From: Heterodontus francisci
Lineage: Eukaryota
NCBI RefSeq assembly: GCF_036365525.1
Contig: NC_090402.1
Location: 49,017,700-49,081,699, forward strand
Length of the DNA stretch: 64,000 nucleotides
Direction: 5' to 3'
In this document: one piece after another, positions 27,982 to 52,555 of the stretch
How positions within the stretch are numbered: position 1 is the stretch's first letter
How the letters are laid out: the number at the start of each line of letters is the position of its first letter
The notes under the pieces: generated by a model
Told to the model about the DNA's origin: nothing
What the model saw: the letters and a program-made list of their open reading frames with translations, nothing else
Database searches by the model: none
Made by a program: the position numbers and the translations under genes

Positions 27982-29074
27982 ACTACATTAAAGGCACTAT
28001 ATAAATGTAGGTTGTTGCTGAAGTTGTAAAATTTGACCTCCAGAGATTGTGGGACCAAAGTCATTACTCAATGTTTCTCTCTGGTGCGCCTTGCTGTCAT
28101 TGTGTTAAATTAAAAGAAAGCTGCTATGAAATCACTTTGCAGCCTTTTATGCTCCAGTAGAAACCTTCTCAGTATCTCAATATCAAGAGGCAGATGTGTC
28201 TGGGAAAGACGACTGTAAACATGGAGGTTCAGGATCTGAAAGGACTCGGGACTTATTGTAAATGGCTGTTACATTGCAGTGAATACTGGACTGGGACAAG
28301 TGATGATGGTGCAGCTGTGTAAATAGCACCAAATACTGTCTGCCTGTGTTACAACAATGTGACCTGTGAATGGATGCATCAAACTGCCACCTGTGCAAAA
28401 GGTAAGAATTAATCACAGAAGAAAATGAGAAAAACCAACTGTTTCATGCATTTGTTTTTATTCAGTTTTATTTGCTTTGCTAAGCAGCCTTACATTGTGA
28501 TAATTGTACAGACACTAGGAGCGCAGAGGCAAGGGAAAGGCTGTGAGGCATCAATTCCATCAGTGATATGACTTCAACAACATTGTTTGAAATATTACAG
28601 AATCAGTACGACATCAGTCACTGGTTCAAATAGTGTCCCTGTTTAAACTAAAGTCTCATTGGGGCCAGTTATTATTGGATCTAACCAGCAATATTCTCCA
28701 GGGCTCTGACCAGTGCCCAGCATGAACATGTTGCCCTGATATTTGTTGAATGTTTTCAGGCACTTGTTGGATGACCTGAGCTGTAATATAAAGTGTTAGT
28801 TGCTGATTCCATTTTTAAGAATTAAGTTTTGTGTAATTTTCACATGTTTGTACTTTCAGATTGAGTTTATAATTCAATGTCACACTGACCCCCACAAGCA
28901 AATATTTGTAAATCGGCAGCACAGATTTCAGCTCATTAAATTATGATCAGTAATTTCTTTATTTCAGCACATGTAGACAAATAGCTAGGGTTGTAGTTCA
29001 ATGCGTTCATCCTTCATTAAATGGTCCTTCCCTCCATGGAGAATGAGATCAATCAAACTGCAATAGATGTAAAA

Positions 29075-29126
29075 TAAATTAGACGTTCTTCTTTATTGAG
29101 TTTCCTTGCTCTGTATTACACCTGCT
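29075..29126 (-). other. Candidate terminal (3' UTR/poly(A)) exon of the prepropeptide gene
   Basis: Minus strand: atttctcacttacattccacag|AGCAGGTGTAATACAGAGCAAGGAAACTCAATAAA... AATAAA at 29097-29092 followed by U-rich sequence; 3' end approximate. Confidence 0.6.
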
Positions 29127-29916
29127 CTGTGGAATGTAAGTGAGAAATATAACAGTATAAAAAGTGGCAGAACAAAAATGAATGGCTTTTCTGAACATTG
29201 TCTCCTGATTGTACAGATTTTTATATTCAAGAAACAATAATGAACCTTTGTGAAGGACCATAAACAATCCAGCTGTTAAAGGGATGGCTTGTGTCTGCCC
29301 CCCAAGTGGATCAGTGAGTAACCGTGAGCACTCCTGGTACTGCAGGATGCCAGTGACATAATACTCTTTGCTAGATTGGCAGCTGCTGGTTGGGACAGGG
29401 GTGGTGAGGCTGCAGTCCATGACGGGTAGGTGAACTCACAGTGCTGTTAGGAAGAGGGTTCCAGGATTTTGACCCAGCAACAGTGAAGGAACAGCAATAT
29501 AGTTCCAAGTCAGGATGGTGTGTGGCTTGGAGGGGACTTTGCCGGTGAGGGTGTTGCCATGCATCTGCTGCCCTTGTTCTTTTGGGTATTAGATTTCGTG
29601 GGTTTGGAAGATGCTGTCTAGGGAGCCTTGGTACATTGCTGCAGTGCATCTTGTAGATAGTACACACACTACTGCCACTGTGGTGGAGGGAGTGAATGTT
29701 TGTGGATGGTGTGCCATTCAAGCGGCTGCTTTGTCCTGCATGATGTCGAGCTTCTTGTGTGTTGTTGGAACTGCACCCATCCAGGCAAGTGGAGAGTGTT
29801 CCATCACACTCCTGATTTGTGCCTTGTAGATGTTGGACAGGCTTTGGGGAGTTAGGAGGTGAGTTACTCGCAGCAGGATTCCTGGCCTCTGATCTGCACT
29901 TGTAGCCATGGTATTT

Positions 29917-30755
29917 ACCTGGTTGAGTGAGTGGGCAAATGCATGGCGGATGCAGTATAATGTGGATAATTATGAGGTTATCCACTTTGGTTGCAAAAAC
30001 AGGAAGGCAGATCATTATTTGAACAGCTATAAACTGAGAGAGGGGAATATGCAGCGAGGCCTGGGTGTTCTCATACACCAGTCGCTGAAGGTAAGCATGC
30101 AGGTGCAACAGGCGGTAAAAAGGGCAAATGGTATGTTGGCCTTCATAGCGAGAGGATTCGAATACAGGAGCAGGGATGTCTTGCTGCAATTATACAGGGC
30201 CTTGGTGAGGCCACACCTGGAATATTATGTGCAGTTGTGGTCTCCTTATCTGAGGAAGGATGTTCTTGCTACAGAGGGTGTGCAGCGAAGGTTTACCAGA
30301 CTGATTCCTGGGATGGTGGGATTGTATGAGGAGAGATTGAGTCGGTTAGGATTATATTCGCTGGAGTTCAGAAGAGTGAGGGGGGGATCTCCTAGAAGCA
30401 AATAAAATTCTAACAGGACTTGACAGGGTAGATGCAGGAAGGATGTTCCCGATGGTCGGGGAGTTCAGAACCAGGGTTCATAGCCTAAGGATACGGGGTA
30501 AACCTTTCAGGCCTGAGATGAGCAGAAATTTCTTCACCCTGTGGAATTCGCTACCACAGAAAGCAGTTGAGGCCAAAACATTGTATGTGTTCAAGAAGGA
30601 ATTAGATATAGCTCTTGGATCTAAAGGGAACAAAGGTTATGGGGCGAAAGCGGGAACAGGTTACTGAGTTGGATGATCAACCATGATCCTAATGAATGGC
30701 AGAGCAGGCTCGAAGGGCTGAATGGCCTACTCCTGCTCCTATTTTCTATTTTTCT
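29917..30755 (+). mobile_element. CR1 LINE 3' fragment nested in older LINE
   Basis: ORFs 29908-30405 (RPHLEYYVQLWSP) and 30443-30667; CR1 3' UTR tail. Confidence 0.85.
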
Positions 30756-32891: not shown

Positions 32892-33255
32892 AAATTTTGA
32901 GGGGCCTGGATAGAGTGGAGGTGAAGGGTCTATTTACCTTAGCAGAGCGGTCACTGACGAGTGGGCATAGATTTAAAGTGATTGGTAGAAAAATTAGAGG
33001 GGAGATGAGGAAAAACGTTTTCACCCAGAGGGTGGTGATGATCTGGAACTCACTGCCTGAAAGGGTACTTGAGGCAGAGACCCTCAACTCATTCAAAAGG
33101 AATCTGGATATGCACCTCAAGTGCTGTGAGCTGCAGGGCAATGGACCAAATGCTGGAAGGTGAGATTAGATTAGGTGGATAGTTTTTTGGCCTGCACAGA
33201 CATGATGGGCCAAGTAGCCTCTTTCCGTGCCTTAAACTTTCTATGATTCTATTCT
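32892..33255 (+). mobile_element. CR1 LINE extreme 3' fragment nested in older LINE
   Basis: KILRGLDRVE...FTQRVVMIWNSLP followed by TTCTATGATTCTAT tail. Confidence 0.8.
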
Positions 33256-34233
33256 GTGACAGCTCTCCCAGCTTTGGCACAAGCCCCCAGTTGTTAGTAA
33301 GGAGGACTTTGCAGGGTCGACAGTGCTTGGTTTGCCATTGTGGTTTCCGATGCCTCAGTGGATGCCGAGTGGTCCATCTGGTTTCATTCCTTATTGACTT
33401 CGTAGCCATTAGCTACAACTGAGTGGCTTGCTAGGCCATTTCAGAGTCAACCACATTGCTGTGGGTCTGGACACATGCAGGCCAGACCGGGTTAGGACAG
33501 CAGATTTCTTCCCTAAAGGACATCAGTCAACCAGTTGGGTTTTTACAATAATGGACAATGGTTTCATGGCCATCATTAGACTAGCTTTTTTTAAATTCCA
33601 GATTTATTAATTGAATTGAAATTCCACCTTCTGCCCTGGTGGGATTCGAGCCCTTGTCCCCACAGCAATACCCTGGGTCTCTGGGTTACTAGACCAGTGA
33701 CAATGCCACTACGCCTCTGCTTCCCCTGTCACATTTCCTACAATACAGCAGTGACTATACTTCAAAAGCACTTCATTAACTTCAATTTCTTCGGGATGTC
33801 CTGTAGCTGGGACAGGTGCCATATAAATGTAAGTCTTTCTTCCTTTACATTCTTTTTGCCTCTCTCATTTCCTTCCTCACTTCTCCTCTCTAGTCCCTGT
33901 ATTCAGCTTGATCCTCTCCCCTATTATTAACCTGATATTTATTCTAAGCCTCCTAGTTTTGTTTTATTTTTATCTCAATCTCTTTTGTCATCCCAGTGGC
34001 TCTAGCTTTGTATGCCCTCCCTTACCCCATCATAGGAATAAGTGTAGTCTGCACCTAATCTATCTTCTTAAGGCCTCCCATTGCTTATTTACTGCTTATG
34101 AAAAAGGACAAGAAATTATAAGAGGTGATAATTTGTCAGCTGTACTTAAGCTCTGCCGTCTGTTTCTCTGTGACTGGCAGCACAGCATAGATCAGTTCAG
34201 AGGCGAGGGAAACTTAGAATGACTTCTACTTAC

Positions 34234-34544
34234 TCAGACCTCAGCTGGAGGCTCTTGCTCAGCCGGAGGCTCTTGCTCAGCCGGAGGCTCTTGCTCAGCC
34301 GGAGGCTCTTGCTCAGCCGGAGGCTCTTCCTCAGCCGGAAGCTCTTGCTCAGCCGGAGGCTCTTCCTCGGCCGAAGGAGGTGCTTTCTCCTCAGTAACTG
34401 GATATTTTGGCTTCAAAGTTTTCTTCATTTTCTTTGCTACTTTCTTCACTATTTTCTTTAGTTTCTTTGCTACTTTCTTCATTATTTTCTTTATTTTCTT
34501 TGCTATTTTCTTCGCTATTTTCTTTGCTTTCTTCAGGAACTTCT
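34234..34544 (-). CDS. Prepropeptide exon 5: Lys-rich helix plus acidic Pro/Glu tail and stop
   Basis: Acceptor ttgccttctatttcag|AGAAGTTCC; ends GTCTGA|gtaagt. Corresponds to ORF 34234-34560. Confidence 0.85.
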
Positions 34545-37500
34545 CTGAAATAGAAGGCAATATTACATCTATCTGGTGTTTTCATTTTGGAACTTTTGGT
34601 CCAAGTTGCAGCTTCGATAATTAGTGATTTATTCAGCTGCATTTCTTAAAACTCCTCCACTTCATCTGGGTTTGCTTATTCAGTGCTGTAGCACCAAACT
34701 GTGCCCTGATGTGGTACTAAATTCTCTTTCAGGGATAACTAATGTGAGAAATTAAAGTGATAAACTGATGCAGTGAGCGATTTTAATGTTAGGGCTTGGC
34801 AGCATTAATGGAGCTGAGAACTGAGCAGTTCACTTTGACCGGGGGATGTTTTCTGCAGGTAACAATGCATTAAGTTACTGTGACGTAGCATATAGAAAGC
34901 ACTGGGTCCTCATAGTTTACACCCCAAGGATTCCTGAAAGCAAACTAGGGAGAAATATCACAAGTCCCACTATAATTTTCTAAATCTCTGAAAAAGTACT
35001 CTGAAAAGTAAAATTGTGCCAGGGACTGCTGGGAAATATCATTCTCTTCAAAAAGGGAGACAGGCACAAGCTGAGAATTTATAATCTCACTTCAATTGTT
35101 GGTAAACCACTAGACTACATAATACCAGAAAGAATTATTATGGCCAACACTTGGGGAGAAAGATGATTAGAGGAGAGAAAGGGAGTTAGTTAGAATGGAA
35201 AGGTAAGGTGAGTGATATATACTTATATACTTTGTTCTTTGATGATCTGGACTAAGGAATTGAGGAAACAATATCGAGATTTGCCAAAGACACCCAATTG
35301 AGGAGGATGGCCCATTCAGACAAAGAGCTTAAAAGATATTAGTTGGTTACAGGATTGGCAGGTGAGTAGAACTCCCCTCCTGACTCCCCAAAGCCTGTCC
35401 ACCATCAACAAGGCACAAGTCAGGAGTGTGATGGAATACTCTCCACTTGCCTGGACGGGTGCAGCTCCAACAACACTCAAGAAGCTTGACACCATCCAGA
35501 ACAAAGCAGCCCGCTTGATTGGCACACCACGCACAAACATTCACTCCCTCCACCACCGACGCACAGTGGCAGCAGTGTGTACCACCTACAAGATGCACTG
35601 CAACAATGTGCTGGTGTCCTATGTCGGCCAGACCAGGTAAGGACAGCAGATTTCCTTCCCTAAAGGACATTAGTGAACCAGATGGGTTTTTACAACAATC
35701 GACAATGGTTTCATGGCCATCATTAGACTAACTTTTAATCGCAGATTCATTAATTGAATTCAGATTCCACCTTCTACTGTGGTGGGATTCGAGCCCATAT
35801 CCCCAGAGCAATAAAATAAAAGCAAAATACTGCAGATGCTGGAAATCTGAAATAAAAGCAATCAATGCTGGAAATACTCAGCAGGTCTGGCAGCATCTGT
35901 GGAGCGAGAGAGGAGCAGAGTTAACGTTTCAGGTCAGTGACCCTTCTTCAGAACTGACAAATATCAGAAATGTAATAGGTTTTAAGCAAGTAAAGTGGGG
36001 TGGGGTAAGAGATCACAAAAAATAAAGTGTTGTTAGGATAAGGTCACAGAGAATAACTGACCACAAGGTCATGCAACAGAGGCAAATGGTATGTTACTGG
36101 TGTGCTGAAAGACAAAGCGTTAGTGCAGAGAGGATGTGAATAGACTGTAAAGCACAAAGCACTCCAAGCACAAACATTTCTGTTTTTTTAAAAAAACAGA
36201 AACAGTGGGTAGGCACAGTAGAAACAAACTAACCAAAATAAAAAAAATTAAAATAAAATAATCAAATAAAAAACAGTAAAAGAAAAAATAACTAAACTTA
36301 AAATGGGGCGGGGGGGTGGGGAGGTGGGGGTGGAGCCGTCATGCTCTGAAATGAATGGATTCAGTGTTCAGTCCGGCAGGGTGTAGTGTGTCTAATCGGT
36401 AAATGAGATGCTGTTCCTCGATTTTGTGTTGTTGTTTGCTGGAACACTGCAGGAGTCCCAGGACAGAGATGTGAGCATGGGAGCGGGTGGGGGGGAGCGG
36501 GGGGTTGGTGGTGTTGAAATGGCCAGCAACCGGAAGTTCAGGGTCCTGCTTACGGACTGAGTGGAGGTGTTCTGCAAAGCGGTCACCCAATCTGCGTTTG
36601 GTCTCCCCAATGTAGAGGAGACCACATTGTGAGCAGCGAATACAGTACACTAAATTGAAAGAAGTACAAGTAAATCGCTGCTTCGCCTGAAAGGAGTGTT
36701 TGGGGCCTTGGATAGTGAGGAGAGATGACAATTCCCTTCCCTTCCTCAACTTCTCTGTCTCCATCTCCAGTGATAGACTGTCTACTAATATTCATTATAA
36801 GCTCACCGACTCCCACAGCTACCTCGACTACACTTCTTCATACCCTGCCTCCTGTAAGGACTCCATTCTCCCAGTATCTCCGCTCCGACGCATCTGCTCT
36901 GATGATGCAACCTTCCACGACAGTGCTTCTGATATGTCTTCCTTTTTCCTCAACCGAGGATTCCCCCTCCACTGTGGTTGACAGGGCCCTCAACCGTGAC
37001 CAGCCCATTTCCTGCACCTCTACCCTCGCCCCTTCCCCTCCCTCCTAGAACCGCGATAGGGTTCCCCTTGTCCTCATTTTCCACCCCACCAGTCTCCACA
37101 TCGAAAGAATCATCCTCCCCCACTTCCGCCACATCCAGCGTGATGCCACTACCAAAGGCATCTTCCCCTTCCTTCCCCTGTCAGCATTCCGAAGGCATCG
37201 TTCGCTCTGCGACACCCTGGTCCACTCCTCCATTACCCCCACCATTTCGTCCCCTTCCCACGGCACCTTCCCCTGCAATCACAGGAGGTGTAATATCTGC
37301 CCATTTACCTCCACTCTCCTCACTAGCCAAGGCCCCAAACATTCCTTTCAGGCGAGGCAGCGATTTACTTGTACTTCTTTCAATGTAGTATAGTGTACTC
37401 ACTGCTCACAATGTGGTGTCCTCTACGTCTGGGAGACCAAGCGCAGACTGGGTGACCGCTTTGCGGAACACCTTCGCTCAGTCCATAAGCATGACCCCGA

Positions 37501-40500
37501 GCTTCCAGTTGCTTGCTATTTCAACAACCCCTCCCCCGCCCCTGCTCTCATGCTCACATCTCTGTCCTGGGATTGCTGCAGTGTTCCAGCGAACATCAAC
37601 GCAAGCTCGAGGAACAGCATCTCATTTATTGATTAGGCACACTACAGCGTGCCGGGCTGAACATTGAATTCAATCATTTCAGAGCATGACTGGATCCCCC
37701 TTTTTATGTTTAGTTATTTTTTTATTATTTCTGTTTTCTTTTTTCTTTGTTATTTGGATATTTTATTTTAGTTTTTTTTTAATTTGGTTAGTTTGCCTAC
37801 TCACTGTTTCTGTTGTTTTTTTTTAAAATTTAATGTTGTGCTTGGAGTGCTTTGTGCTTTACAGTCAATTCACACCCTCTCTGTACTAACGCTTTGTCTT
37901 TCAGCACACTATTAACATACCATTTGCATTTGTTCCATGACCTGGTCAGTTATTCTCTGTGACCTTGTCCAATCAAAACCTTGTCTTTTGTTCTCTCTTG
38001 CCCCACCCCCCGCTTTACTTGCTTAAAGCCTTTTACATTTCTAATATTTGTCAGTTCTGAAGAAGGATCACTGACCTTAAACGTTAACTCTGCTTCTCTC
38101 TCCACAGATGCTGCCAGACCTGCTCAGTATTTCCAGCATCTCTTGTTTTTATCCCAGAGCAATACCCTGGGTCTCTGGGTTACCTAGTCCAGTGACAATA
38201 CCACAACGCCACTGCCTCCCCTAAGGTAGGTAGATCTTGCTTTTTGTTGGGGCCCAGGATTCTTCTTGAACCTTGTTCGCTGTAGGTGACTTTTCTGTCT
38301 TGGGGGTTCATGTGTCTTCAGTGGATTCAGAGGCTTGTGAGAAAGAGATGGGAGCAGACAGGAGAGATCTTCTCAGTCCAGGAGCAAACAGACACTCTCA
38401 CATGGAGATTGGACCTGCTTGAGAAGGGCAGCGGCGGCAGGAGATAAAAACCGGCGGCAAAGAGGGAAGCCCAGCACACGGAGAGTGGACCTGCGTGAGA
38501 AGGGCAGCGGTGGCGGGAGATAAAAACCGGCGGCAGAGAGAGAAGCCCAGCACACGGAGAGTGGACCTGCGTGAGAAGGGCAGCGGCGGCGGGAGATAAA
38601 AACCGGTGGCAGAGAGAGAAGCCCAGCACACGGAGAGTGGACCTGCTTGAGAAGGGCAGCGGCGGCAGGAGATAAAAACCGGCGGCAGAGAGCCACTTCT
38701 ACCTGTTAGTGTTAAAGTGTGACGTCACAGGAAAACAGGTAGGTGATTGGTGGGTATCTCTTCGTGTCTCTTTGAATTGGCCAAGAGGTTTAAATCAAGA
38801 GACGTTATTACCGCTGAAGAGTACAGTTAAGAAATTCTCTTTGAAAATATTTAACATCCAAATTAATTAATTAAATAGAATAAAGATGGCTGGGCAGGTG
38901 ATGCATCGGAGCTGTCGTATATGGAAGCTGGCGGACGCCGGTAGGATCCACATGTGGCCGCATCTGCAGCAAGTGTTGGCTGCTGGAAGACCTTTGGCTC
39001 CGAGTTGATGAGCTGGAGTCCGAGCTGCAGACACTGTGATACATCAGGAAAGGGAGAGTTACCTGGACACTGTTTTAGGAGACAGTCAGACCCCTTAGAT
39101 TAATTACATCAAAGTTGGACCGTGGTCAGGGACAGGAGGGTGCGACTGTGAGTGAGGCAGGTATGGGGATCCAGAATTTAGCTTTGGAGCAGCCTCAGCC
39201 AGTGCCGTTATCCAACAGGTACAAGATTCTTGCTCCCGGTGTGGACAAGGGCACAGACTGCAGGGAGAATGAGCGAACTGACCACAGCACCGTGGTTCAG
39301 AGTGCCATTCAAGTGTGGGGGAGAAGAGAGAAATGTAGAAGTAATAGGGAATAGCATAGTTAGGGGAATAGATACTGTTCTCTGCAGCAAAGATAGGGAG
39401 TACCGAAGGCTGTGTTACCTACCTGGTGCCAAGGTTAAGGACATCTCTTCTGGACTGGAGAGGAACTTGGAGTGGGAGGGGAAGGATCCAGTTGTTGTGG
39501 TCGACATAGTTAGGATTAGGAAAGAGATACTGCTGAGGGACAATGAGCAGCTCGGGGCTAAATTGAAAAGCAGAGCCACAAAGGTAATAATCTCCGGGTC
39601 ACTACCTGAGCCACAGGTAAATTGGCATAGGGTAGATAACATTAGAGAGGTAAACGTGTGGCTCAAAGATTGTTGTGGGAGAAATGGTTTCCGAATTATG
39701 AGGCACTGGCACCAGTACTGGGGAAGGAGAGAGCTGTTCTGTTGGGATGGGCTTCATGTGAACCATGCTGGGATCAGAGTCCTGGTGAATCGTATAACTA
39801 GGGTTGTAGACAGGACTTTAAACTAATTAGTGGGGGGGAGGGTTCAATTGAAGGGAAGTTTTTAAAAGATTTAAAAGAAATGAGAGAGCAAAGATGCAGG
39901 GTAGTGAGGAGGCGAATGATAATCAAAGTGTGACAGGAAGTGCCAGAAAATATAAGCAAAAGAGTGCATCAGAAATTAGAACCAGAATGAGTAATAATGG
40001 CAAAAAATCAAAGTTTAAGGCTCTTTATCCGAATACACGCAGCATTTGTAACAAGATAGATGAGTTGACGGCACAAATAGAAATAAATGAATGTGACTTG
40101 ATAGCTATTAGGGTGACCAAGACTGAACGCTCAATATTCAAGGATATTTGACATTTCGGAAAAATAGGCAAAAAGGAAAAGGAGGTGGGGTAGCTTTGTT
40201 AATAAAGGAAGGTATCAGTGCGGTGGTGAGTCGTGATAAAGGTGCAATAAATGGTGATGTGGAATCAGTTTGTGTGGAAATAAGGAATAGCAAGGGGAAG
40301 AAGTCGCAGGTGAGAGTCGTCTATACGCCTCCGAAGAATTGCCTCACTGTAGGACAAAGTATAAATTGGGAAATAATGGAGGCGTGTAAGAAGGGCGCAA
40401 CAATTGTCATGGGTGATTTTAATTTGCATATTGACTGGACAAATCAGATTGGCAGAGGTAACATGGAAGACGATTTTGTCGAGTGCATCAGGGATTGTTA

Positions 40501-43500
40501 CTTGGAGCAATATGTTGTGGAACCTACCTGGGAACAGGCAATTTTAGATCGAATAATGTGTAATGAAGTAGAATTAATAAGAGATATTGTAGTTAAGGAT
40601 CCTCTAGGGGGTAGCAATCACAACATGGTAGAATTGCAAATTCAGTGTGAGGGCGAGCAACTCGGGTCTCAAACCAGTGTCCTCAATTTAAACAAGGGCA
40701 AGTACAGAGGTATGAAGAAAAAGTTATCTAAAGCGGGCTGGGAAAAGAGACTAAGAAGAAGGTCAGTGGATGAGCAGTGGAAGACATTTAAGAAGATATT
40801 TCATAATGCGCAACAAAAATTTATCCCGGTCAAAAAGAAGGACTCGATGAGAAGGATGAACCACCCGTAATTAACAAAGGCAGTCAAGGAGACTTTCCAA
40901 TCAAAAACTAAAGCATACAAAGCGGCAAAAACTAGTGGTAGGCCAGAGGATTGGGAATTTTTTAGGAACCAGCAATGGATGACTACAAAAGCTAATAAAG
41001 AGGGAGAAAATTGATTATGAAAGTAATTTGGCAAGAAATATAAAAACAAACAGCAAGAGCTTCTACGGGTATATAAAAAGAAAGAGAGTAGCTAAAGTGA
41101 GCGTGGGCCCCTTGGAGAATGCAATTGGAGAAGCGGGGAACAGGGAAATGGCCGATAATTTAAGCCAATATTTTGCATCGGTCTTCACAGTGGAGGACAC
41201 TATAACATCCCACAGATATCAGATAAGCAAGGAGCTAATAGGAGGAAAGATCTTGTAACAGTCTCTATCACGAGGGACAAAATATTTGATAAACTAATGG
41301 GACTAAAGGCACCAGGGCCTGATGGCCTACATCCAAGGGCTTTAAAGGAAGTGGCTGCAGAGATAGTGGAGGCATTGATCAAAATATTCCAGAACCAACT
41401 GGATTCCATGACGGTCCCAGCAGATTGGAAAACTGCTAATGTGATGCCCCTGTTCAAGAAGGGAGGGAAACAAAAAGCAGGAAACTGTAGGCCAGACAGC
41501 CTCACATTGGTCGTTGGGAAAGTGCTAGAGTCCGTTATTAAGGGAGAAATAGCAGGACATTTAGAAAAGCTTAAAGCAATCAAACAGAGCCAACATGGTT
41601 TTGTGAAAGGGAAATCATTTTTGACAAATTTTCTTGAGTTCTTTGAGGATATAACAAGCATAGTTGATAAAGGGGAACCGGTAGATGTAGTGTATTTGGA
41701 TTTCCAGAAGGCATTCGATAAGGTGCCACATAAAAGATTATTGCACAAGATAGGAGCTCACAGTTTTGGGGGTAATGTATTAGCATGGATTGAGGATTGA
41801 TTAACTCTCAAAAGATAGAGAGTTGGGATTAATGGGTCTTTTTCAGGTTGGAAAGGTGTAACTAGTGGAGTGCCACAAGGATCAGTCCGAGAGCCTCAGT
41901 TATTTACTATCTATATTAATGACTTGGAGAAGGGGGCAGAGTGTAATATATCCAAATTTGCTGATGATACAAAAATAGGTGGGAGGGCATGTCGTGATGA
42001 GGACATAAGGAATTTGCAAGGGTATATAGATAGGTTGAGTGAATGGGCAAAAACTTGGCAGATGGAGTTTAATGTCGGAAAGTGCGAGGTCATGCACTTT
42101 GATAGGAAGAATCAAAAGGCAGACTATTATTTAAATGGAAAGAGACTCCAAAAAAGTGCAGTACAGAGGGATCTGGGTGGTCTTGTGCATGAAACACAAA
42201 AAGTTAGCATGCAGGTGCAGCAAGTAATTAAGAAGGCAAATGGAATTTTGGCCTTTACTGCTAGGGGGTTGGAGTTTAAAAATAGGGAAGTCTTGTTGCA
42301 ACAATGTAGAGTGTTGGTGAGGCTGCACCTGGAGTACTGTGTACAGTTTTGGTCCCTGTATTTAAGAAAGGATTGGAGGCAGTTCAAAAGAGATTCACTA
42401 TGCTGATTCCTGGGTTGAAGGGGTTGACTTATCAAGAACAGCTAAACAGGTTAGGCCTTTATTCATTAGAGTTTAGAAGAATAAGGGCTGATCTTATTGA
42501 AACGTACAAGATTTTGAGGGGGCTTGACAGGGTAGATGTTGAAAAGATGTTTCCACTAGTGGGGGAATCTCAAACAAGGGGACATAGTTACAGAATAAGG
42601 GGACACTCATTTAAAACTGAGATGCAAAGGAATTTCTTCTCTGAGGGCAGTGAATGTCTGGAATTCTCTACCCCAGAGAGTTGTGAGGCTAGATCAGTGA
42701 AAGTATTTAAAGAGGAGATAGATAGATTTTTGAAATATTGGGGAGTTGAGGGCTATGAGGAGCTGGCACGAAAGAGGAGTTTGAGGTCTGGGGCAGATCA
42801 GCCACGATCTTATTGAATGGCAGGGCAGGCTTGAGGGGCTGAATGGCCTACTCCTGCTCCTATTTCTTATGTTTTTATGTTCAGTACAAACTGTTTGTAG
42901 AATTCAGAAAAACCCAGATTGCCAAGCAGGTTAGTCATTTGACGAACTGGTCTGACCACGTCTTGGATTGTATCACCTTACCAGTCTCTGGAATACTCCT
43001 TTCACACACCATACCTGGTGATCAAGGTGCATTGAGGGTTAAATGGTCAGGGAATAGTCCTTTGTCCTTTGAATCACCATGTGTTAATATGCAAATGTCT
43101 TTTCCAGCCATGGCTGATCTGTTTAACAAGTTTCTTTCTTCATTCCAGTAACAGTTTAGTCTCAATATTCAAGACAAAATTAATTTGCCTCATTCTTGGC
43201 AGGTCGGGGCCTAACATGACAAGTGCCTTTGATGTTTTAGGAAAGGAAGTGGAAGGCTGGGTTAGCAAGTTTGCCGATGACACGAAGGTTGCTGGAGTTG
43301 TGGATAGTGTGGAAGGCTGTTGTCGGTTGCAACGGGACATTGACAGGATGCAGAGCTGGGCTGAGAAGTGGCAGATGGAGTTCAACCTGGAAAAGTGTGA
43401 AGTGATTCATTTTGGAAGGTCGAATTTGAATGCAGAATACAGGTTTAAAGACAGGATTCTTGGTAGTGTGGAGGAACAGAGGGATCTTGGGGTCCATGTC

Positions 43501-46500
43501 CATAGATCGCTCAAAGTTGCCACCCAAGTTGATAGGGTTGTTAAGAAGGCGTATGGTGTGTTGGCTTTCATTAACAGGGGGATTGAGTTTAAGAGCCGCG
43601 AGGTTATGCTGCAGCTCTATAAGGCCCTGGTTCGACCACACTTGGAATATTGTGTTCAGTTCTGGTCGCCTCATTATAGGAAGGATGTGGAAGCTTTAGA
43701 GAGGGTGCAGAGGAGATTTACCAGGATGCTGCCTGGACCGGAGGGCATGTCTTACGAAGAAAGATTGAGGGAGCTAGGCTTTTCTCATTGGAGCGAAGAA
43801 GGATGAGACGTGACTTGATAGAGGGGTACAAGATGATGAGAGGCATAGATACAGTGGATAGCCAGAGACTTTTTCCCAGGGTGGAAAGGGCTATCACCAG
43901 GGGGCATAATTTTAAGGTGATTGGAGGACGGTTTCGGGGAGATGTCAGAGGTAGGTTCTTTACACAGAGAGTGGTGGGTGCGTGGAATGCGCTGCCAGCG
44001 GTGGTAGTAGAAGCAGATACATTAGGGACATTTAAGCGACTCTTGAATAGGTACATGGATGATAGTAGAATGAAGGGTAGGTAGTTAGTTTGATCTTAGA
44101 GTAGGTTAAAGGTTCGGCACAACATCGTGGGCCGAAGGGCCTGTACTGTGCTGTACTGTTCTATGTTCTATCTCAAAGCGCTTTACAGCCAATAAAGTAC
44201 TTTCGAAGTGTAACAAAAAAACTTCCATTTATAAAGTGCATTTAACGTAGTAAAATGTCCCAAGGTGTTTAACAAGAGCAATAGCAATAAAAACATTTTT
44301 GACACTGAGCCACAGAAGGTGCTATCAGGGCAGATAATTAAAGGCTTGATCAGAGTAGATTTTAAGGAGCATCTTAAAAGAGGAGAGTGAGGTAGACAAT
44401 TAGATACAATGAATAGAGTCAAGCTCAGATAATTACACCCAGCTAGATAGCAGGTATTGGTGAAAGAGGTTGTGGCCAATTTGTGCAAAGCCAAGACTCC
44501 AGGGAGAACTCCCCTGCTCTTTTTCAAATCATGCCATGGGATCCTTTATAGCCACTTGAAAGAACAAACAGGCTCAGTTGAACCTCTCATCTGAAAGGCA
44601 GCATCTCTGACAGTGCAGCACTCCCACAGTACTGCACTGGAGTGTCAGCCTCAACTTTGAATGCAAGTCTTTGGAGTAGGCTTGAATCCATAACCTCTGA
44701 CTCAGAGGAGATAGCATTGCCACTGAGCCATGGCTGATACATTGAGTAATTTTGTCTGTATGTGCGCACGTGGGTCTGTGTGAGATGAGGCCACAGTAAT
44801 CCCTGTTCCTTTTGATAGGACCAGAAATTCAAGCTTTTCAAAAAAAGGAAAATAAATTTCAGTAAGGTAATAATTTGACAGCTGTGCTTAAGCTCTGCAG
44901 TCAGCTTCTCTGCAACTTGCAGCACAGCACAGATCAGTTTAGAGTTGAGGAGCTGGAAATGACTTCTACTTACTCAGGCCTCGCTTCGCAGTGTCAGTCT
45001 GATCCTCAGGCAGTCCTGATTGAATGAGTGTCCTTGCTATTGTTTCTAAAATAGGAGACAGAATTATACTTTTGTGTCATTTTCACTTTCGGATTTTTGA
45101 TCCAAATTTAATTAATTAATGATTTATTCCCTCCATTTCTTAAACCATCTCAATTTAGTCTGGCCTAGCTTATGCACTGCGACAGCATATTACTGTGCCC
45201 TAATGTGGAGGAGAGTGTAGGGTCTGAGACTCTTTATAGGAAGGATATGAAAGTAACGGAAAAGGTCAGCGTGATAACAGGGTCGAGAGGCCGCAGTTAT
45301 GGGGAGAAACTTGAGACGGTGGGACTTTACCGAATCTGAGAAAGATGACCTGGCAGAGATCTTTAAGATTCTGGAAGGTTTTGAGCAGGTAATGAGAAAT
45401 TGTTTCCATTGCCTTCAAAAGGATAATTAGAGGGCATAAACTTTAGATAATAGCAGAAAGAATTAAAAGGGAGGTTTGAAATCAATTCTTTACACAGAGG
45501 GTGTTGGAACCCGGAATTCTCTGCAACAAAGCATTATTGAAGCAAATCTATCAGTTCTTTTTAAAGACTATTAGTTAGTTGCTTGAAAAAGAGGAATATT
45601 CGTGTTTGGGGAATGGGGTGGGGTGAGTTACTCATGGAGAAAAACTTTCAAGATTTCAGTTCTTCAAAAGGCTAGAGTCAGAGTAAGGGACTGTTCAGAA
45701 GGAGATATGGGGTAGAGTAGATGGCAGAGAAAGTGTGGAATGAGGCCAAGGAGGGATTTAAAGGTGAGGACAAGGCTTTTGAATCGAATTGTGACATGCA
45801 GGACAGAGGATGAACTCTATTCTCCACTTCTCTGATGGGATTTGTCTTGTCTGACAATCATCTGACAATACAAAGTCAATCGGGGAGTTGAGGGAAGTGA
45901 AGAGGTAGAATTGGATGCCATCAGCATGCATTGGAAAGATGATTCTATGCTTACACATAATACTGAGACACCATTTACAATTACATTTGTGTTTGTGCTC
46001 ACATAAGTAGAAACCAGTACACACAGGTACTTAATTACTCATAAATGCTGACAGGTACATCAATGTGCTTAGAAGTGCATAAAGACAAATGCAATATATA
46101 AAGTGAGTATTCGACCAACGAGGGCTGGGCAATAAATGTGCCCTTTCCCACATGCCAGGAAAAGACTTTCTCATAGAATAGTTTTCCTGTCAGAAATTGT
46201 TTTCCGTGGAATTATGTTCTGATGAGGAAATATCAATGCTTTCACCAGGTAGTAGGTAACATTGAGAACCACAGAGAGTGAAGATGGAGCCAATGTTAAC
46301 CCACGGTGTAGACTGTGAGATTACAGCACAGTAACTGAGTAACGGGAGATACCGACATCCACATACATCCCACATGATCTACAATACATGTCTCCAATGA
46401 GACCCAGCCAACCTTGGCCCACTGAGCTCATTTCTCATACGTGGGGCACAAGATGTCAGACTGGGTCAGTTTCCTTGGGATCCAAGTGGCTTCCAGGAAT

Positions 46501-49500
46501 ATCGGACAATGTTATAACCAAGTCCCTCCATCAATCCTTTCACTATTGTATTGTTTCAGTAATTAAAAGGAAATGCTTACCAGCTATTTTGCTGCCAATT
46601 CTAAAAAACAACCTACCAATAAATCGGGGTGATGACTCTAAAGGAACAGGATGACAAATGGCACTGATTCGTAGTCGAGATCCGCTGTATTTGTTAAAGT
46701 TCGCTAATATCACTTAGCACTGAGTGCTGGCAAAAGTATATTACAGTAGCCAGTGCTCAAGTGCCAACTGAAAATGTATTCACAGTTAAATTCTGTAAAA
46801 TCCCACTTCTTGTTTTATTTGGCAGTTTACATGGTCCGGCACAAAATAGCACAGTCTAAGGGGACCAACACCCTTCTGACCCCAAATAACCTCCCTCTTC
46901 TGATCTGGCCAAGATCATCTCACTGAGTGGAGACCAAGGTTCGAACTTAGAGCAGGAGGAGGCCATTCAGCCCCTGCACCATTTAGTGAGATCATGGCTG
47001 ATCTCTACCTCAACTGCATTTACCCACCTTTGCTCCATATCTGTTGATAGCTGGACCTAACAATCAACTATCAATGTTAGTCTTGAAAGCTCTTGACCTC
47101 CAGCATCCACAGCCTTTTGGGGGAGGGAGTTCCAGATTTCCAGTACCCTTTGTGTGAAAAGGAGCTTCCTGATTTCACTCCAGCCAGCCTAGCTCTAATT
47201 TTAAAGATTATGTTTCCTTGTTCTCAATTCCCCCATCAGGGAAAATAGTTTCTCCATATCTACCCGATCAAATCCTTGTAACATTTTAAGCACCGCAATC
47301 AGATAATCCCTCAATCTTCTAAACTCAAGAGAATACAAGCCAAATTTATGCAAACTGTCCTCACAATTTAACCGTCTAAGCCCTGGTATCATTCTGCTGA
47401 ATCTCCGCTACACCAAAGCCAATGTGAAATATGGTGCCCAGAACTGAGCGAAGCACTCCGGGGCGTTTGATCAAGGCTGTGTACAACTGAAGCAAGACTT
47501 GCTCCTCTTTGTCTCAGAAGCAAAGGACCTTTATTGCGGAGCACACTCTAATTTGTTAGTTTTCCTCACTTACCCAGATCTTGATTCTCTAGATTGCTAA
47601 CCTCAGACTCTGAATCATCCAACTCACGCAACGCCTCTTCTGAAATAAATAGAAAGTGTTGTATTTTCACAAAGTTATCAGTATAGATGATGATCTCACG
47701 TTGTCAATTACCTGCAGAATTCTTTCAATATTCGAAGCAGCTGAGTGGAGATGTTTGCTGTCTGCTCATAGAATTGCACAGCATGTACAACACAGAAACA
47801 GGCAATTCAGCTCAACTGGTCTGTGCTGGTGTTCATGTTCCACACGAGTCTCCTCCCACCCTACTTCACCTCATCTTATCACATATCCTGCTATTGCTTT
47901 CTCCCTCATGTAGCTTCCCCTTAAATGCATCCATGCCATTCATCTCAACTGCTCCTGTGGTAGTGAGTTCCACATTCGAGCCACTCTGGGTAAAGAAGTT
48001 CCTCCTGTATTCCCTATTGGTGACTGTTCTGTGTTTGTGGCCCCTTGTTCTGGTCTCCCCTACAAAGGGAAACATCTCTACGTCTACACTATCGAACTCC
48101 TTAATAACTTTAAATTCCTCCTATTGGGCCACCCTCAGCCTTTTCTATTTTCCCTAATTCACTTAGGGTTTACCACAAGAGATGTTCCAAGATAGACTAC
48201 TGCTTCCTGAAACAATCCCACCCATCCCAAATAACACACTGTGATATGGGAAAAGAGTGGGAAGAGATGTGTAATGTCACCTCCTCAAGTACCTTTTATT
48301 CTTGTTTTAACTTGGCTGTGAGTAAGGGTAGGTTCCTGACAACAGAAAACCAGGAAACCTTCAATTCACAGCCAGTTGAGCACAATGGATGGAGAGGCTG
48401 CCCCTGGACTCTCACTTCAGTCTGTTTGCCCTCTTTTTGTTCCCCATAAATGTCATTTCAGGGTGACACTGAGCCTTGTGCTTCCTCGCCAATGTTTCTC
48501 CATTCCAGCCCGCTCCTTAAGCTATTGACCCATTCACTAGGATTGGCTCCATGGCCATGGCTCTCCTTTAGACATGTGGGGGAACCACGACAGGAAGTGC
48601 TGGCAGACTGTGCTACTGAGGAGGGAGTCCCAGCCCTGGATCCTGCCCTCAGACAGTGACCCACATCAGGGAAAGTTCTATGTGATTGAGAGTGGCAGTC
48701 GTGGCCAATCTCCCCTTTTCTAACTCAGGTTGCTGCTCCCGATTGTGATGCCCCTGAGATCCTCTCACTCTGTGCAGTCGAGGTTGGGGTGAACTGAGCC
48801 TGTCACAGTCTGTAAGGCAGAGATACACATGGTATGTGAACAGTCCAGACACTTACCCAGCTCTTGCATCTGTGGCTCAGTAACGTCAAACTCAGAATCA
48901 TCCTCCTCGCGCAGCGCCTCTTCTGAAATAAATAGAACATGTATTGTCTCTGTTGTTTCAGTAAAGAACATTTGCTAAATTACTGCCTGTCCCTCTGTCT
49001 AATGTACTTCAGACTGTTGAGTTCAGTTACGCCTGTCCTTTGTTTCTTATTACAGCTTAATTCAGTTTTGCTGGGTGGGATGTCTAATAGACAGGATGTG
49101 TAACAAGTGGGTGTGTTATGGGTGTGTGTTTTCCAGGCACCAATCCACTGACACCCATTTTATACCAACACCGACAGGTAAAATCAGCCCTATACAATAT
49201 CTGCTCCACCACACTACCAGGCAGTGCATTCCAAATCCTAACCATGTACTGTGTAAAAAAATGTTTTTCCTCATGTCGTTGTTGCTTCTTTAGCCATTCA
49301 CCTTAAATCGGTGTTCTCTGGTTCTTGATCCTTCTGCCAATGGTTCTCCCTGTCTACCCTGTCCAGCCCTTTTGTGATTTTGAACATCACTATCTAATCT
49401 CCACTCAACCTTCCCCTCTGCAGAAAACAGCTCCAGCTTCGCCAATGTATCCTCGTAGCTGAAGTCTCTCATCCCTGGAGCCATTCTCGTAAATCTCTTC

Positions 49501-52206
49501 TGCACACTCTTGAATGCCTTCGCATCTTCTGATATTGTGGTGCCCAGGATTGGACACAATGCTGCAATTGAGGCTGAATCGGTTTTATACAAGTTCACCA
49601 TAACTTCCTTGCTTTTGTACTTTTTGTACTCTGTGCCTCTATTTAGAAAGCCCAGGATCCCACATGCCTTATTAATGCCATTCCTAACCTGTCCTGGACA
49701 TATATCCCAGGGCCCTCTGTTCCTTCACCCCCTTTAGAATTGTATCCTTTATTTTATAATGCCTTTGCTGGAATTCCTACGAAAATATATAAGTTGACTC
49801 TTCTCTGCATTGAATTTCATCTGCCACATGTCTCCCCATTCCACCAGCCTGTCTAAGCCCTCTTGAAGGCAATCACTATCCTCATCACAGTTCACAGTAC
49901 TTCCAAGTTCTGTGTCATTTTCAGATTTTGAAATTGTGCCCTGCACACCCAGATCTAGGTCATTAATATAGATCAAGAAAACCAGAGCTCCTCGTACCAA
50001 TTCCCAGGGGAACCCAAGTATATACCTTCCTCCAGTCTGAGAAACAATTGTTGACCACTACTCTCTGTTTCCTGTCACTCAGCCAACTTTGTATCCATGC
50101 TGCTAATGTACCTTTTATTCCATGGGCCTCAACTTTGCTGACAAACCTGTTATGTGGCACTTTGATAACACCTTTTGGAAATGCACGTACACCACATCAA
50201 CCGCATTACACTCAAGCATTTCTGTTACCTCACCAATAAATTCAATCAAGTTAGTTAAACATGATTTGCCTTTAACAAATCTGTGCTGGCTTTCCTTAAT
50301 TGTTCCGTTTGTCTAAGTGACTGTTAATTTTGTCCCAGATTATCGATTCTAAAAGTTTTCCTGCCACCAAGGTTAAACTGACTGGCCTGTAGTTGCTGAG
50401 TTGATCCTTTACACTGTTTTCGGAAGAAGGGTGTAACATTAGCAATTCTCCAGTCCTGTGGCATCACCCCTGTATCTAAGGAGGATTGGAAGATTATGGC
50501 CAGCACCTCCGCAATTTCCACCCTTGCTTCCCTCAGTATTTCGAATACATCTCATCCAGTCCTGGTGACTTAGCAATTTTAAATACAATCTGCCTTTTTA
50601 ATAGGTCTTCCTTATCAATTCTTAGCGCTTCCAGTGTCTCAAGTACCTCTTTCCCTACAACTTGGGAAGCATCTTCTTCTTTGGTAAAGACAGATGCAAA
50701 GTAGTCATTTGGTACCTCAGCCACACCCTCTGCCTCCATGTGTAAATCCACGTTTTGGTCCCTAATGGGCCCCACCCCTCCTCTTACTACCCTTTTAATA
50801 TTTATAAGCCTATGGAAGACGTTTGGATTGCCTTTTATGTTAGCTGCCAGTCTCTTTTCATACTCTATCTTTGCCTCTCCTATTTCCTTTTTCACTTCCA
50901 CTCTGAACTTTCTGTATTTAGACTGATTCCCACTTTTGTAAGATCAACCTGACATCTTTCATATGCATCCTTTTTCTGCTTCATCTTACTCTCTATCTCA
51001 TTCATCGTCTAGAGAGTTTTGGCTTTGCTTGCATACTTTTTCCCTTCATGGGACTGCTGTCCCTTGTTCTCATTGCAGCTCATATCAGTTTCATTGGGCA
51101 GGGTGTTTTACTGGTGGGCTGTATAGGGTGTAAAACAGGTGGATGTATAATGGGTGGGATGTATAATGAGTGGGATGTCTCATGGGCATGGTGTATCGCA
51201 GGCGGGTATTACCGCACCAATCCACTGATACCCATTTTTCACCAACACCAACATTTAAAGTCTGTCCATTACAATATCTAACACTTTGCTGAAATCTAAA
51301 TATCTGGCACCCACATAATTCCCGTGGCCAGCAAAGTTCACCATTTCTTTCAAGACCTTCAGTAAACTTGTTAGACAAGTCTTCTCATAATTGCATAACT
51401 AATCCCTCTAATCCTACTGTATCCCAGTTCATTATCCCCTCTTTCAGAATACCTACCAACGATTTACCCTCGACCAATGACAAAGTCTCTGACCTTTTGC
51501 CTCTTGGGTCATCCGATGGGATTTTTTTTTCAAGATTGCTGCTACATTCCTTACTTTCCAAACCTCAGGCTGTGATCTCATTCCTAATGATTCCCTAAGA
51601 TAAGGGCATGCACAAGACCAATCTTCCTGGCCATTTCTTTAAATAACACTGTCGGACACCCACTCAGGCTTAGTACCTTGTCTTCATTAATCTCCCTCAG
51701 TTTATCAGTGAAATTTAAGTTCCCTTCAGCACTTCTCTCAGATAGGTAAATACGAAGATGTGGAGGATTCACAGGAAACAGAAAACAATAATTAATTTAG
51801 TACAATTACTATCACTTGCTCACTTGTTATTATGGGACCTTTGGGATCTTTCAATGGTTCCATCCTTCCCAATATTTCATTACAATGCTATTGGTTACAA
51901 GGAGGTGTCCAGCAAGTGCTGAGCTGCTGTTTCAACCTCAACACATTCAGTCACTCCTGAATCTTCTGACACTGTTGCAGAAATGTTATATCTTTTACTC
52001 CTCTCTGACCCATGATAGAATAGTCGGAGCAGATACTCTCCTTTAGAATGTTTGTAGGTCTCCAGAAGAGCCTGTATTTCTGTTAGGCTCAGTTGAGATC
52101 AGACCCCAATTGAACAGGTAATTAATATTAACTCACCTGCCCCAGCAGAATGGAGGGCGATCGCACACAATGTGGCCAACAGCACTAGAAGAGAAAGTGG
52201 CTTCAT
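34234..52206 (-). CDS. Spliced 194-aa secreted prepropeptide, cationic amphipathic host-defence-peptide-like; join(52206-52137,48922-48857,47639-47574,45045-44974,34544-34234)
   Basis: Exon lengths 70+66+66+72+311=585 nt form one open frame with GT-AG phase-1 junctions: MKPLSLLVLLATLCAIALHSAGA EEALREEDDSEFDVTEPQMQEL EEALRELDDSESEVSNLENQDL ETIARTLIQSGLPEDQTDTAKR GLKKFLKKAKKIAKKIAKKIKKIMKKVAKKLKKIVKKVAKKMKKTLKPKYPV TEEKAPPSAEEEPPAEQELPAEEEPP(AEQEPP)x4AEV*. Confidence 0.85.
34240..34370 (-). repeat. 18-bp coding tandem repeat (GCTGAGCAAGAGCCTCCG, AEQEPP), about 7.5 units
   Basis: Visible on + strand as repeated CGGAGGCTCTTGCTCAGC. Confidence 0.95.
34410..34533 (-). repeat. 33-bp coding tandem repeat (KKx KKxx KKxx), about 3.7 units
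   Basis: AAGAAAGCAAAGAAAATAGCGAAGAAAATAGCA / AAGAAAATAAAGAAAATAATGAAGAAAGTAGCA / AAGAAACTAAAGAAAATAGTGAAGAAAGTAGCA / AAGAAAATGAAGAAAACTTTG. Confidence 0.9.
35814..38152. mobile_element. Penelope-like element (RT C-terminus + GIY-YIG) with long inverted arm and 12-bp TSD
   Basis: Minus ORF 36339-36764 NLVYCIRCSQCGLLYIGETKRRLGDRFAEHL (GIY-YIG). Plus-strand PFLNFSV...IHYKLTDSHSYLDY and a second GIY-YIG at ~37340-37690. CCCAGAGCAATA at 35802-35813 and 38153-38164. Confidence 0.88.
35919..35955 (-). ncRNA. Minimal hammerhead-ribozyme motif in Penelope terminus
   Basis: AGTT-CTGAAGA-A-GGGTCA-C-TGACCT-GAAA-CG-TT-AACT: CUGANGA and GAAA cores, stem II hairpin, palindromic stem III and AGTT/AACT stem I. 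Variants at 1672-1708, 2059-2095 and 38053-38089. Confidence 0.6.
38395..38692 (+). repeat. 76-bp GC-rich tandem monomers (about 4) at the 5' end of a CR1
   Basis: GGACCTGC recurs at 38411, 38487, 38563 and 38639. Confidence 0.92.
38395..42883 (+). mobile_element. Essentially full-length decayed CR1 LINE (5' monomers, ORF1 esterase, ORF2 APE+RT, 3' UTR) in intron 4
   Basis: ORF1 from ATG 38887 including 39230-39826 (VIGNSIVRGIDT...WDGLH); APE 40148-40870; RT 41297-42406; tail ATTTCTTATGTTTTTATGTTC. Confidence 0.9.
43230..44170 (+). mobile_element. CR1/HER1 LINE 3' fragment, relatively young
   Basis: ORFs 43069-43806 (KFADDTK...[13 protein letters not shown]) and 43788-44084; tail GTACTGTTCTATGTTCTAT. 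Confidence 0.9.
44974..45045 (-). CDS. Prepropeptide exon 4 (ETIARTLIQSGLPEDQTDTAKR-GL)
   Basis: tgtctcctattttag|AAACAATAGC...GAAGCGAGGCCTGA|gtaagt; 72 nt, phase 1-1; carries the KR site. Confidence 0.85.
46945..47510 (-). mobile_element. CR1 LINE 3' fragment
   Basis: ORF 47201-47392 (IPGLRRLNCEDSLHKFGLYSLEFRRLR) plus 3' UTR. Confidence 0.75.
47574..47639 (-). CDS. Prepropeptide exon 3 (EEALRELDDSESEVSNLENQDL)
   Basis: ttctatttatttcag|AAGAGGCGTTG...GATCTGG|gtaagt; 66 nt, phase 1-1. Confidence 0.85.
48857..48922 (-). CDS. Prepropeptide exon 2 (EEALREEDDSEFDVTEPQMQEL)
   Basis: ttctatttatttcag|AAGAGGCGCTG...GAGCTGG|gtaagt; 66 nt, phase 1-1. Confidence 0.85.
49210..51047 (-). mobile_element. 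Decayed CR1 LINE fragment (RT region)
   Basis: ORF pieces 50533-50901, 50324-50521 (DWRIANVTP), 49963-50160, 49749-50000. Confidence 0.8.
52137..52206 (-). CDS. Prepropeptide exon 1, signal peptide MKPLSLLVLLATLCAIALHSAGA
   Basis: GGGAAAATGAAG start context; basic n-region, hydrophobic core, A-G-A cleavage motif; donor CAG|GTGAGT. Confidence 0.88.
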
Positions 52207-52224
52207 TTTCCCGAGCTGTGAAGT

Positions 52225-52555
52225 CGAGTGATGAGCTACAGTCTCCTCTGCCCCTTATGTACCATCTTATCATCACATCTCAGAATTTGTCCTAATCTCA
52301 CTTTCCAAGAAAAACCTTGTTCTTTGTCAGGACAATGCTCACCTGGTTGACAATCTGATTCCAGGTAATAGCTGTGACAGATAGGAGGAGGCCAGACCTC
52401 AAATGAGTCACTGCATGTCTTTAAAGCATTCATTGTTCTTTCATTTCTTATTCTCAGCCCTGTTATACAAAGATTGCCCATAACAGAGGGAGTCACAGTG
52501 TGAGTCAAATGATGAGATCGGTAGATTCTGAGGTGCAGGCCTGTTGCGGTCAAAT
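52225..52555 (-). promoter_or_regulatory. Candidate proximal promoter of the prepropeptide gene
   Basis: TATA-like TACATAAG (52261-52254), Inr-like TCACTC about 30 nt downstream, GATAAG (52271-52266), STAT/GAS TTCCAAGAA (52303-52311), AP-1 TGAGTCA (52404-52410, 52501-52507), RUNX-like TGCGGT (52545-52550). Confidence 0.55.

Follow-up and report, generated by a model that had tools for sequence, protein, structure and literature searches.

Precursors of the skin peptides of hylid and ranid frogs follow a plan of signal peptide, acidic spacer, Lys-Arg (KR) site and helix. In precursors of linear cationic helical peptides, anionic pro-regions that flank the helix are standard, as set out in parts of PMC7387483 and PMC10608444, and the latter also describes that anionic propeptides neutralise the mature peptides. 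For cartilaginous fish, section 14 of PMC6795676 names transferrin, squalamine and kenojeinin I as peptide antibiotics, and a table in PMC12734493 gives kenojeinin I alone. Here we describe a gene of the shark Heterodontus francisci (gene A) that we consider fairly probable to be a lineage-specific precursor of a linear cationic helical host-defence peptide with putative activity, stored in a charge-shielded form and freed by proteolysis. What is new here is probably the precursor gene family, with its tandem paralogue (gene B), a broken copy (copy C), matched charges and a step of 18 residues in helix length.

The analysed window is a stretch of 64,000 nt on contig C32 (C32:49017700-49081699), and all positions refer to it unless a C32, C17 or C44 prefix is given. 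By ORF and splice reconstruction in the window, gene A was placed on the minus strand with five coding exons within 52206-34234 and a product of 194 amino acids (Table 1). All four introns are GT..AG introns of phase 1, and the spliced frame of 585 nt has a single stop, a TGA that abuts a further GTAAGT donor. Scored with an approximate consensus matrix against the same strand of the window, the four acceptors outscore 99% of the AG sites and the five donors 95% of the GT sites. Gene A is a real gene. An earlier sequence-only reading of this DNA had joined five scattered exons into one 194-residue frame, and this observation is confirmed, including its counts. The same reading had let the junction of exons 4 and 5 create the motif AKR/GLKK. 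The KR and the Gly-Leu are there, but both lie within exon 4 and the splice falls inside the next Lys codon; the bar in the motif marks the predicted cut and not the splice. A 76-nt tandem repeat (38399-38692, 3.9 copies at 94%) lies inside the intron between exons 4 and 5.

Table 1. Features of gene A, its promoter and the tandem duplication. Plain positions are window coordinates.
Feature	Position	Strand	Description
Tandem duplicate pair	C32:48980001-49011855 vs window 16907-54248		94-99% identity
STAT-type (GAS) palindrome	52303..52311	-	105 nt before ATG
GATA site	52267-52272	-	-66 from ATG
TATA-like box	52254-52259	-	-53 from ATG
Coding exon 1	52206-52137	-	70 nt; 23-residue signal peptide (by rule), phase-1 donor
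Coding exon 2	48922-48857	-	66 nt; acidic propiece unit 1
Coding exon 3	47639-47574	-	66 nt; acidic propiece unit 2
Coding exon 4	45045-44974	-	72 nt; propiece end, single KR site, Gly-Leu
Coding exon 5	34544-34234	-	311 nt; Lys-rich helix, then Pro/Glu tail
Exon 5, first part	34544-34399	-	Lys-rich amphipathic helix closed by Pro-Lys-Tyr-Pro
Exon 5, second part	34398-34234	-	54-residue Pro/Glu tail built of an 18-nt repeat
Candidate non-coding last exon	29126-29075	-	52 nt; acceptor score 4.0 before 29126; AATAAA at 29097

Exon 5 has an alternative acidic frame that is open in A and in B, and its use had been named beforehand as an observation that would count against the gene. The frame is open, yet it cannot be reached from exons 1-4, because it needs a phase-2 entry and the consensus donors of these exons are all phase 1; nearby phase-2 GTs carry a stop or score poorly. 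An SCPP-type acidic phosphoprotein was also considered. SCPP genes keep to a phase-0 intron rule and the introns of gene A are all phase 1, and this assignment was rejected. The end of the gene had been set at 29075 in the sequence-only reading, which fits the candidate non-coding last exon, a stretch that is also present in B.

Contigs from four sequencing runs (X1-X4) with exon 5 words, presumed to be RNA, were placed on 33000-52900 at a likeness of 88. Among the 32 contig pieces listed, three map to exon 5 (from runs X1, X2 and X4; two studies and two organism labels), and X3 has no exon 5 piece among these 32. The contigs of X1 (448 nt) and X2 (463 nt) have 0 differences and carry 202 and 217 letters beyond the exon 5 acceptor, respectively, and that of X4, from the other study and organism label (368 nt), shows 5 differences over 201 positions, no gap and 167 further letters. 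In each of the three the match to exon 5 breaks off at 34544, where the acceptor is predicted, and the contig continues elsewhere. A single exon 5 contig supplies a bin depth of 10.4 out of 10.6 in X1 and 18.2 out of 19.6 in X2, and therefore the adjoining intron is nearly bare; in a largely unique intron bin (45616-46279) the depth is 0.42 and 0 for X1 and X2. Because the contigs end at the acceptor with extensions and intron depth is near nil, we infer that exon 5 is spliced at its acceptor, and gene A as a whole is probably spliced. Spliced transcripts had been proposed as a check on the gene: the contig ends fit splicing, but at this likeness transposon contigs predominate, and the 15 joints listed out of 1453 all lie in repeats and none of the four junctions is among them.

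Exons 1 and 2 have next to no contig cover, which carries no weight because the 167-217 extra contig letters had no placement at all. With all exons present 274 coding nt precede exon 5, and 202 or 208 without one small exon. The contig extensions would thus end 57-107 nt downstream of the ATG in a five-exon transcript and between 15 nt before and 41 nt after the ATG in a transcript that lacks one small exon. The shorter transcript suits contigs whose ends fall close to a start site some 25 nt upstream of the ATG (TATA-like box at -53). If the contigs reach near the transcript start, their lengths hint that a transcript without one small exon fits better than the five-exon one; an early end of the contigs is also possible. 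The KR site is lost if exon 4 is skipped, and it is kept if exon 2 or 3 is skipped. Taken together, we lean modestly towards exon 4 being included in the main mRNA.

Gene A and gene B lie in a tandem duplication of about 55-60 kb, each half of which holds HDHD3 and one of the two genes, with 94-99% identity and differing transposon insertions. The five exons recur in gene B (C32:48994744-49010465, minus strand), whose frame of 164 residues is intact. The exon 1 regions are almost identical, which suggests a recent duplication or gene conversion. Exons 1, 2 and 3 differ at 0, 1 and 1 nt, respectively, with an identical signal and the same exon 3 peptide; the divergence of the coding sequence is found in exons 4-5. 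Exon 4 shows 9 differences in 72 nt (8 nonsynonymous and 1 synonymous) versus 66 in 2930 nearby (P about 5e-5), and 185 of the 24607 72-nt windows of the A/B alignment likewise hold at least 9 differences. The 8 nonsynonymous changes fall on about 50 sites and the 1 synonymous change on 19, which is no proof of selection. Helix B is 18 residues shorter than helix A, and this corresponds to exactly five turns.

Copy C is an inverted third copy. Its exon 1 (C32:49086485-49086553) shows 83% amino-acid identity to A with no GT donor after it, and the alignment of its promoter has a gap of about 0.7 kb. In the 60 kb searched for its later exons the only find was an exon-4-type intron remnant at C32:49115361 (L027:5361-5495), 29 kb further on. 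As the donor is missing and only this remnant of the later exons was found, copy C is probably dead. In the 6.0-Gb assembly no further gene copies were detected; exon 1 matches three places and exon 5 two strong places, all of them on C32. Weak matches to exon 5 of gene B (E 0.03-0.5) are found on C44, C37 and C23. On C44 ten weak repeated matches (E 0.03-0.5) form a cluster (C44:24145280-24180825) that is probably another acidic Pro-rich repeat gene. DNA matches on C17 were rejected as copies of exon 5, since they belong to an array, more than 3 kb long, whose short repeat unit is A-rich (C17:32618299-32621861). This array, either a gene or a satellite, is open for more than 1000 codons in a Lys/Thr-rich frame and in a Glu/Asn/Lys/Asp-rich frame.

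The precursor of gene A is composed of a 23-residue signal, a 66-residue propiece, a 51-residue cationic part and a 54-residue Pro/Glu tail. Read by rule, the signal encoded by exon 1 has a basic start, a Leu/Ala core and an Ala-x-Ala end, and it contains the sole Cys of the precursor (residue 14). The sole dibasic site with an Arg is the KR at residues 88-89, at the end of the propiece, and downstream of helix A no dibasic or amidation signal was found. The sequence-only reading had proposed a cationic 52-mer: residues 90-141 do contain 26 Lys, but the end of this 52-mer is arbitrary as no processing signal follows the helix.

Helix A has a mean 18-residue hydrophobic moment of 0.79 versus 0.26 for shuffled sequences, and none of 5000 shuffles reached it. 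Helix B is as amphipathic as helix A (0 of 5000 shuffles reach its moment). In helix A the hydrophobic residues are spaced 3-1-3-3-1 and the hydrophobic face, 20 of 47 residues and mostly Ala, Ile and Val, is fairly mild; the periods of the helix-coding DNA (21 and 33 nt) equal 7 and 11 residues. AlphaFold2, run with two sequences as input, predicted a helix over exon 5 residues 2-42 (pLDDT 77-86), which was expected and adds little, and a Pro/Glu tail without regular structure. Given +26 over 51 residues, the mild hydrophobic face and the lack of a C-terminal processing signal, the product might also be a polycation secreted for a structural or packaging purpose; in granules, mucus, the egg capsule or seminal fluid it would bind polyanions (glycosaminoglycans, DNA, mucins), its acidic flanks keeping it soluble until release. 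However, a helix that faces a membrane is indicated by the strict 3-1-3 spacing of hydrophobic residues and by the five-turn indel, and polyanion binding alone would not require such a helix; the single KR lies directly before the helix, so that we regard a polycation role as unlikely.

In the five-exon frame the net charges of propiece, helix and tail are -18/+26/-18 in A (the helix including the exon 4 residues) and -13/+16/-13 in B, and the whole-precursor net charge is -9 in both. The 10 extra positive charges of helix A are matched by 5 more negative charges in the propiece, all of them via exon 4, and 5 more in the tail. For nine random changes in exon 4, a shift of the charge by 5 in the compensating direction has a P of 0.003-0.01. 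When exon 4 is left out, the net charges become -10 in A and -15 in B and the match is lost. The match, noticed after the fact and in two paralogues only, is the best argument for the translation of exon 4 and for a shielding of the helix by its flanks. The exon 4 substitutions thus argue for its translation, and from the computed charges the acidic flanks would shield the charge of the helix.

Over 88 nt, exon 2 matches exon 3 at 82% identity (57% at the amino-acid level), while their flanking introns do not match each other. By its sequence exon 3 is an old duplicate of exon 2, and both look constrained because they have stayed alike and their introns have not. The intron flanks of exon 4 match those of exon 5 by 70% (171 nt) and 82% (144 nt), and the final bases of the two exons, ahead of the donor, are almost alike; they are read as the stop in exon 5 and, shifted by one base, as Gly-Leu and the start of Lys in exon 4. 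As intron flanks and terminal bases are shared, one of the two exons derives from the other. Should exon 5 be the ancestral form, exon 4 would be a shrunken and frame-shifted duplicate of the exon 5 unit, and the KR site would have been made by the frameshift.

These features also bear on whether the frame is used at all. A spliced transcript that is untranslated or functionless, with the Lys-rich frame as a by-product of an A-rich repeat, would agree with exon 5 being open in two frames, as is the unrelated A-rich array on C17, and with the finding of no annotated A or B protein although the protein library holds Heterodontus francisci. The signal peptide, the kept phases, the register-keeping indel and the matched charges all speak against a non-coding transcript, as does the conservation of the old duplicate exons 2 and 3 next to introns without a match, and we consider it very improbable.

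Next to gene B, HDHD3 (L020:5719-6438) is intact, and its product is identical to the named Heterodontus francisci protein; the duplicate in the window (22632-23354, plus strand) has a premature TGA at codon 18. In family searches, a PRP4-domain gene, one of two genome matches, was found about 0.48 Mb away on the same contig, and ALAD 3.9 Mb away. This neighbourhood matches the human PRPF4-HDHD3-ALAD region, in which we know of no antimicrobial peptide (AMP) gene. Some 66% of the window has matches elsewhere in the window or in the 60 kb that adjoin it on the right. A LINE open frame of 860 codons (25485-28067, minus strand), presumably RTE-type, is absent at the matching place beside gene B and is therefore seen as a young insertion into copy A. 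A reverse transcriptase frame of 472 codons, presumably CR1/L2-type, lies at 61199-62617 (minus strand).

Homology searches were run with single, low-complexity exons, which are less sensitive queries than the joined protein. For exon 5, 7999 candidates of 180-2000 aa contained no protein homologue at E<=0.01, and 3245 candidates of 56-179 aa none at E<=0.1. HMMER against 1.84 billion representatives gave only 7 matches for exon 5, which were read as unrelated and compositional, and the PDB gave nothing usable (4 matches at E 0.67-8.9). The ESM Atlas returned no usable match for exon 5, which shows neither absence nor novelty. None of seven exon pieces matched Pfam at the cut-off, and the HDHD3 query matched as expected. 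In the protein library control, 12 of 49 HDHD3 rows came from 11 chondrichthyan genera, Heterodontus francisci included. As the library holds shark proteins and no match was obtained, A and B seem unannotated as proteins in it, within the limits set by single-exon low-complexity queries. In the literature, with subscription journals and supplements outside the scope, no description of such a shark precursor was found, and five short precursor peptide motifs gave no match. The gene family is probably undescribed.

The claim that the precursor has no cathelin domain and no Cys outside the signal was borne out: PF00666 is absent from the exon pieces and the sole Cys is residue 14. Cathelicidin motif 1 (Prosite PS00946) has no match in the spliced A frame, and a search of the genome for the cathelin domain gave no match, which carries no information as its positive control gave none either. 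By the features tested the product is, as had been stated, not a cathelicidin, defensin, hepcidin or NK-lysin, and a piscidin is excluded likewise. Protein, Pfam and PDB searches with single exons also gave no clear match to a characterised non-defence family, which had been named as a possible refutation. A convergent defence-peptide family had been proposed, and the AMP-type precursor build, the lack of detected homology and the diverging tandem duplicates agree with this, but "convergent" means only that no homology was detected in protein libraries.

A Lys-rich helix closed by a Pro motif resembles the peptides of reptile and mammal cathelicidins, and the mature part of the shark product lies mainly in the last coding exon. 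The gene could thus be a much diverged member of a known family, either a cathelicidin without cathelin domain or a relative of piscidin or frog-skin precursors. This is highly doubtful in view of the missing Cys motif and motif 1, the 0 of 7 exon pieces matching Pfam, the neighbours HDHD3, PRP4-domain gene and ALAD, and five phase-1 exons instead of the four-exon plan given in parts of PMC12006171.

For the host-defence precursor we propose the following sequence of events. The five-exon frame is observed, and its RNA would have exon 5 joined at the acceptor where the contigs end. The signal would send the precursor into the secretory route. There, the acidic propiece and tail outweigh the helix charge to the net -9 computed for both paralogues; this would shield the helix and therefore keep the precursor harmless in the producing cell. 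A prohormone-convertase-type enzyme would cut at the single KR, and a second cut, by some protease, would follow after Pro-Lys-Tyr-Pro and give a peptide of about 51 residues (A) or 33 residues (B). The helix, whose amphipathicity was computed, would form on anionic membranes and permeabilise microbes and perhaps host cells. Diversification may have proceeded by tandem duplication, helix growth by whole turns and compensating acidic changes.

The GAS and GATA sites of the promoter are kept in A, B and the diverged copy C. As background, GAS occurs in 6% of 1276 sampled 200-nt windows and GAS with GATA in 1.7%, with 8 motif types tried, and their conservation hints weakly at cytokine control. 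Fin spines are present in horn sharks, and by the same precursor mechanism the peptide might be the cytolytic part of a defensive or venom-like secretion, in skin or fin-spine tissue, against predators or parasites. We rate this as quite unlikely, since the polar face is purely Lys-based with few aromatic residues, which usually favours anionic microbial membranes, and a STAT-type site in all three promoters fits, weakly, cytokine control. The same precursor build does serve cytolytic peptides, and styelins are haemolytic according to part of PMC10608444.

Beyond the host-defence precursor itself we put forward, tentatively and with somewhat less than even confidence, a wider reading: a helical defence-peptide family of cartilaginous fish with its own origin at the HDHD3 locus, whose convertase site came from a frame-shifted duplicate of the terminal exon and whose helix lengthens by whole turns in charge-for-charge co-evolution with the two acidic shields. 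Such a family could fill the role of cathelicidins and piscidins in other vertebrates, and skipping of exon 4 could switch processing. A gene-encoded, duplicated and fast-changing helical peptide family would, if true, fill the peptide-antibiotic gap in cartilaginous fish. It would also offer nature's own test of whether two flanking pro-regions shield a charge, may exemplify how exon duplication with a frameshift creates a processing site, and could serve as a candidate template for peptides that tolerate salt and urea.

In its build the gene belongs with the linear cationic alpha-helical AMPs, with a secreted precursor (signal by rule), a cationic amphipathic helix and an anionic pro-region. 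With exon 4 included, as is somewhat more likely than not, the shark precursor would share with the linear AMP precursors of frog skin the order of signal, acidic spacer, KR and cationic helix, and the KR depends on this exon; no Pfam match to the frog-skin precursor family was found for exons 1-4, which as pieces of 21-23 residues have low power. Measured against frog peptide lengths the shark helix is about twice as long, and it has a second acidic shield behind it. Defensins, hepcidins and NK-lysins carry a framework of 6-8 disulphide-bonded Cys in the mature part, whereas the shark precursor has no Cys outside the signal. In pipid frogs (CPF/XPF/PGLa/magainin), parts of PMC3731216 describe genes clustered in tandem, pseudogenes among them, with exon duplication and with a peptide encoded across two exons, as in the shark gene. 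However, the pipid genes sit at the cck locus (trak-1, ulk-4, ctnnb-1; PMC3731216, in part) and the shark gene beside HDHD3.

Cathelicidins, as covered by sections of PMC12006171, share with the shark gene a prepropeptide and a cationic peptide mainly in the last coding exon, and Lys-rich helical members exist. In contrast, they have a cathelin domain with CX10-CX5-CX16-C, and the shark precursor has neither a PF00666 match nor a Cys beyond the signal. They also have four exons with the antimicrobial domain in the last (same sections), whereas the shark gene has five, with the peptide starting in exon 4 and followed by a 54-residue acidic tail.

Piscidins and pleurocidins, also from fish, have in common with the shark gene a signal of 22-23 residues, an amphipathic mature peptide and a C-terminal prodomain (PMC4995043, in part). 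The acidic tail of the shark precursor (net -18) corresponds to this prodomain by build and not by sequence, and when the exon 1 and exon 5 pieces were searched up to an E of 10, the pleurocidin family model was not among the matches. According to the same part of PMC4995043, piscidins have a conserved 22-residue signal with the mature peptide directly behind it, whereas 66 acidic residues and KR lie between the two in the shark.

The tunicate peptides Ci-MAM, styelin and clavanin have a signal, a cationic amphipathic region and a C-terminal anionic pro-region that is removed without a dibasic site, as described in parts of PMC7387483. The tunicate precursors screened there have 50-100 residues and a helical anionic tail, unlike the shark precursors with 164-194 residues, a 66-residue front propiece and a non-helical Pro/Glu repeat tail. 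By analogy, this Ciona-type removal of the tail without a dibasic site may serve as a model for the second cut of the shark precursor.
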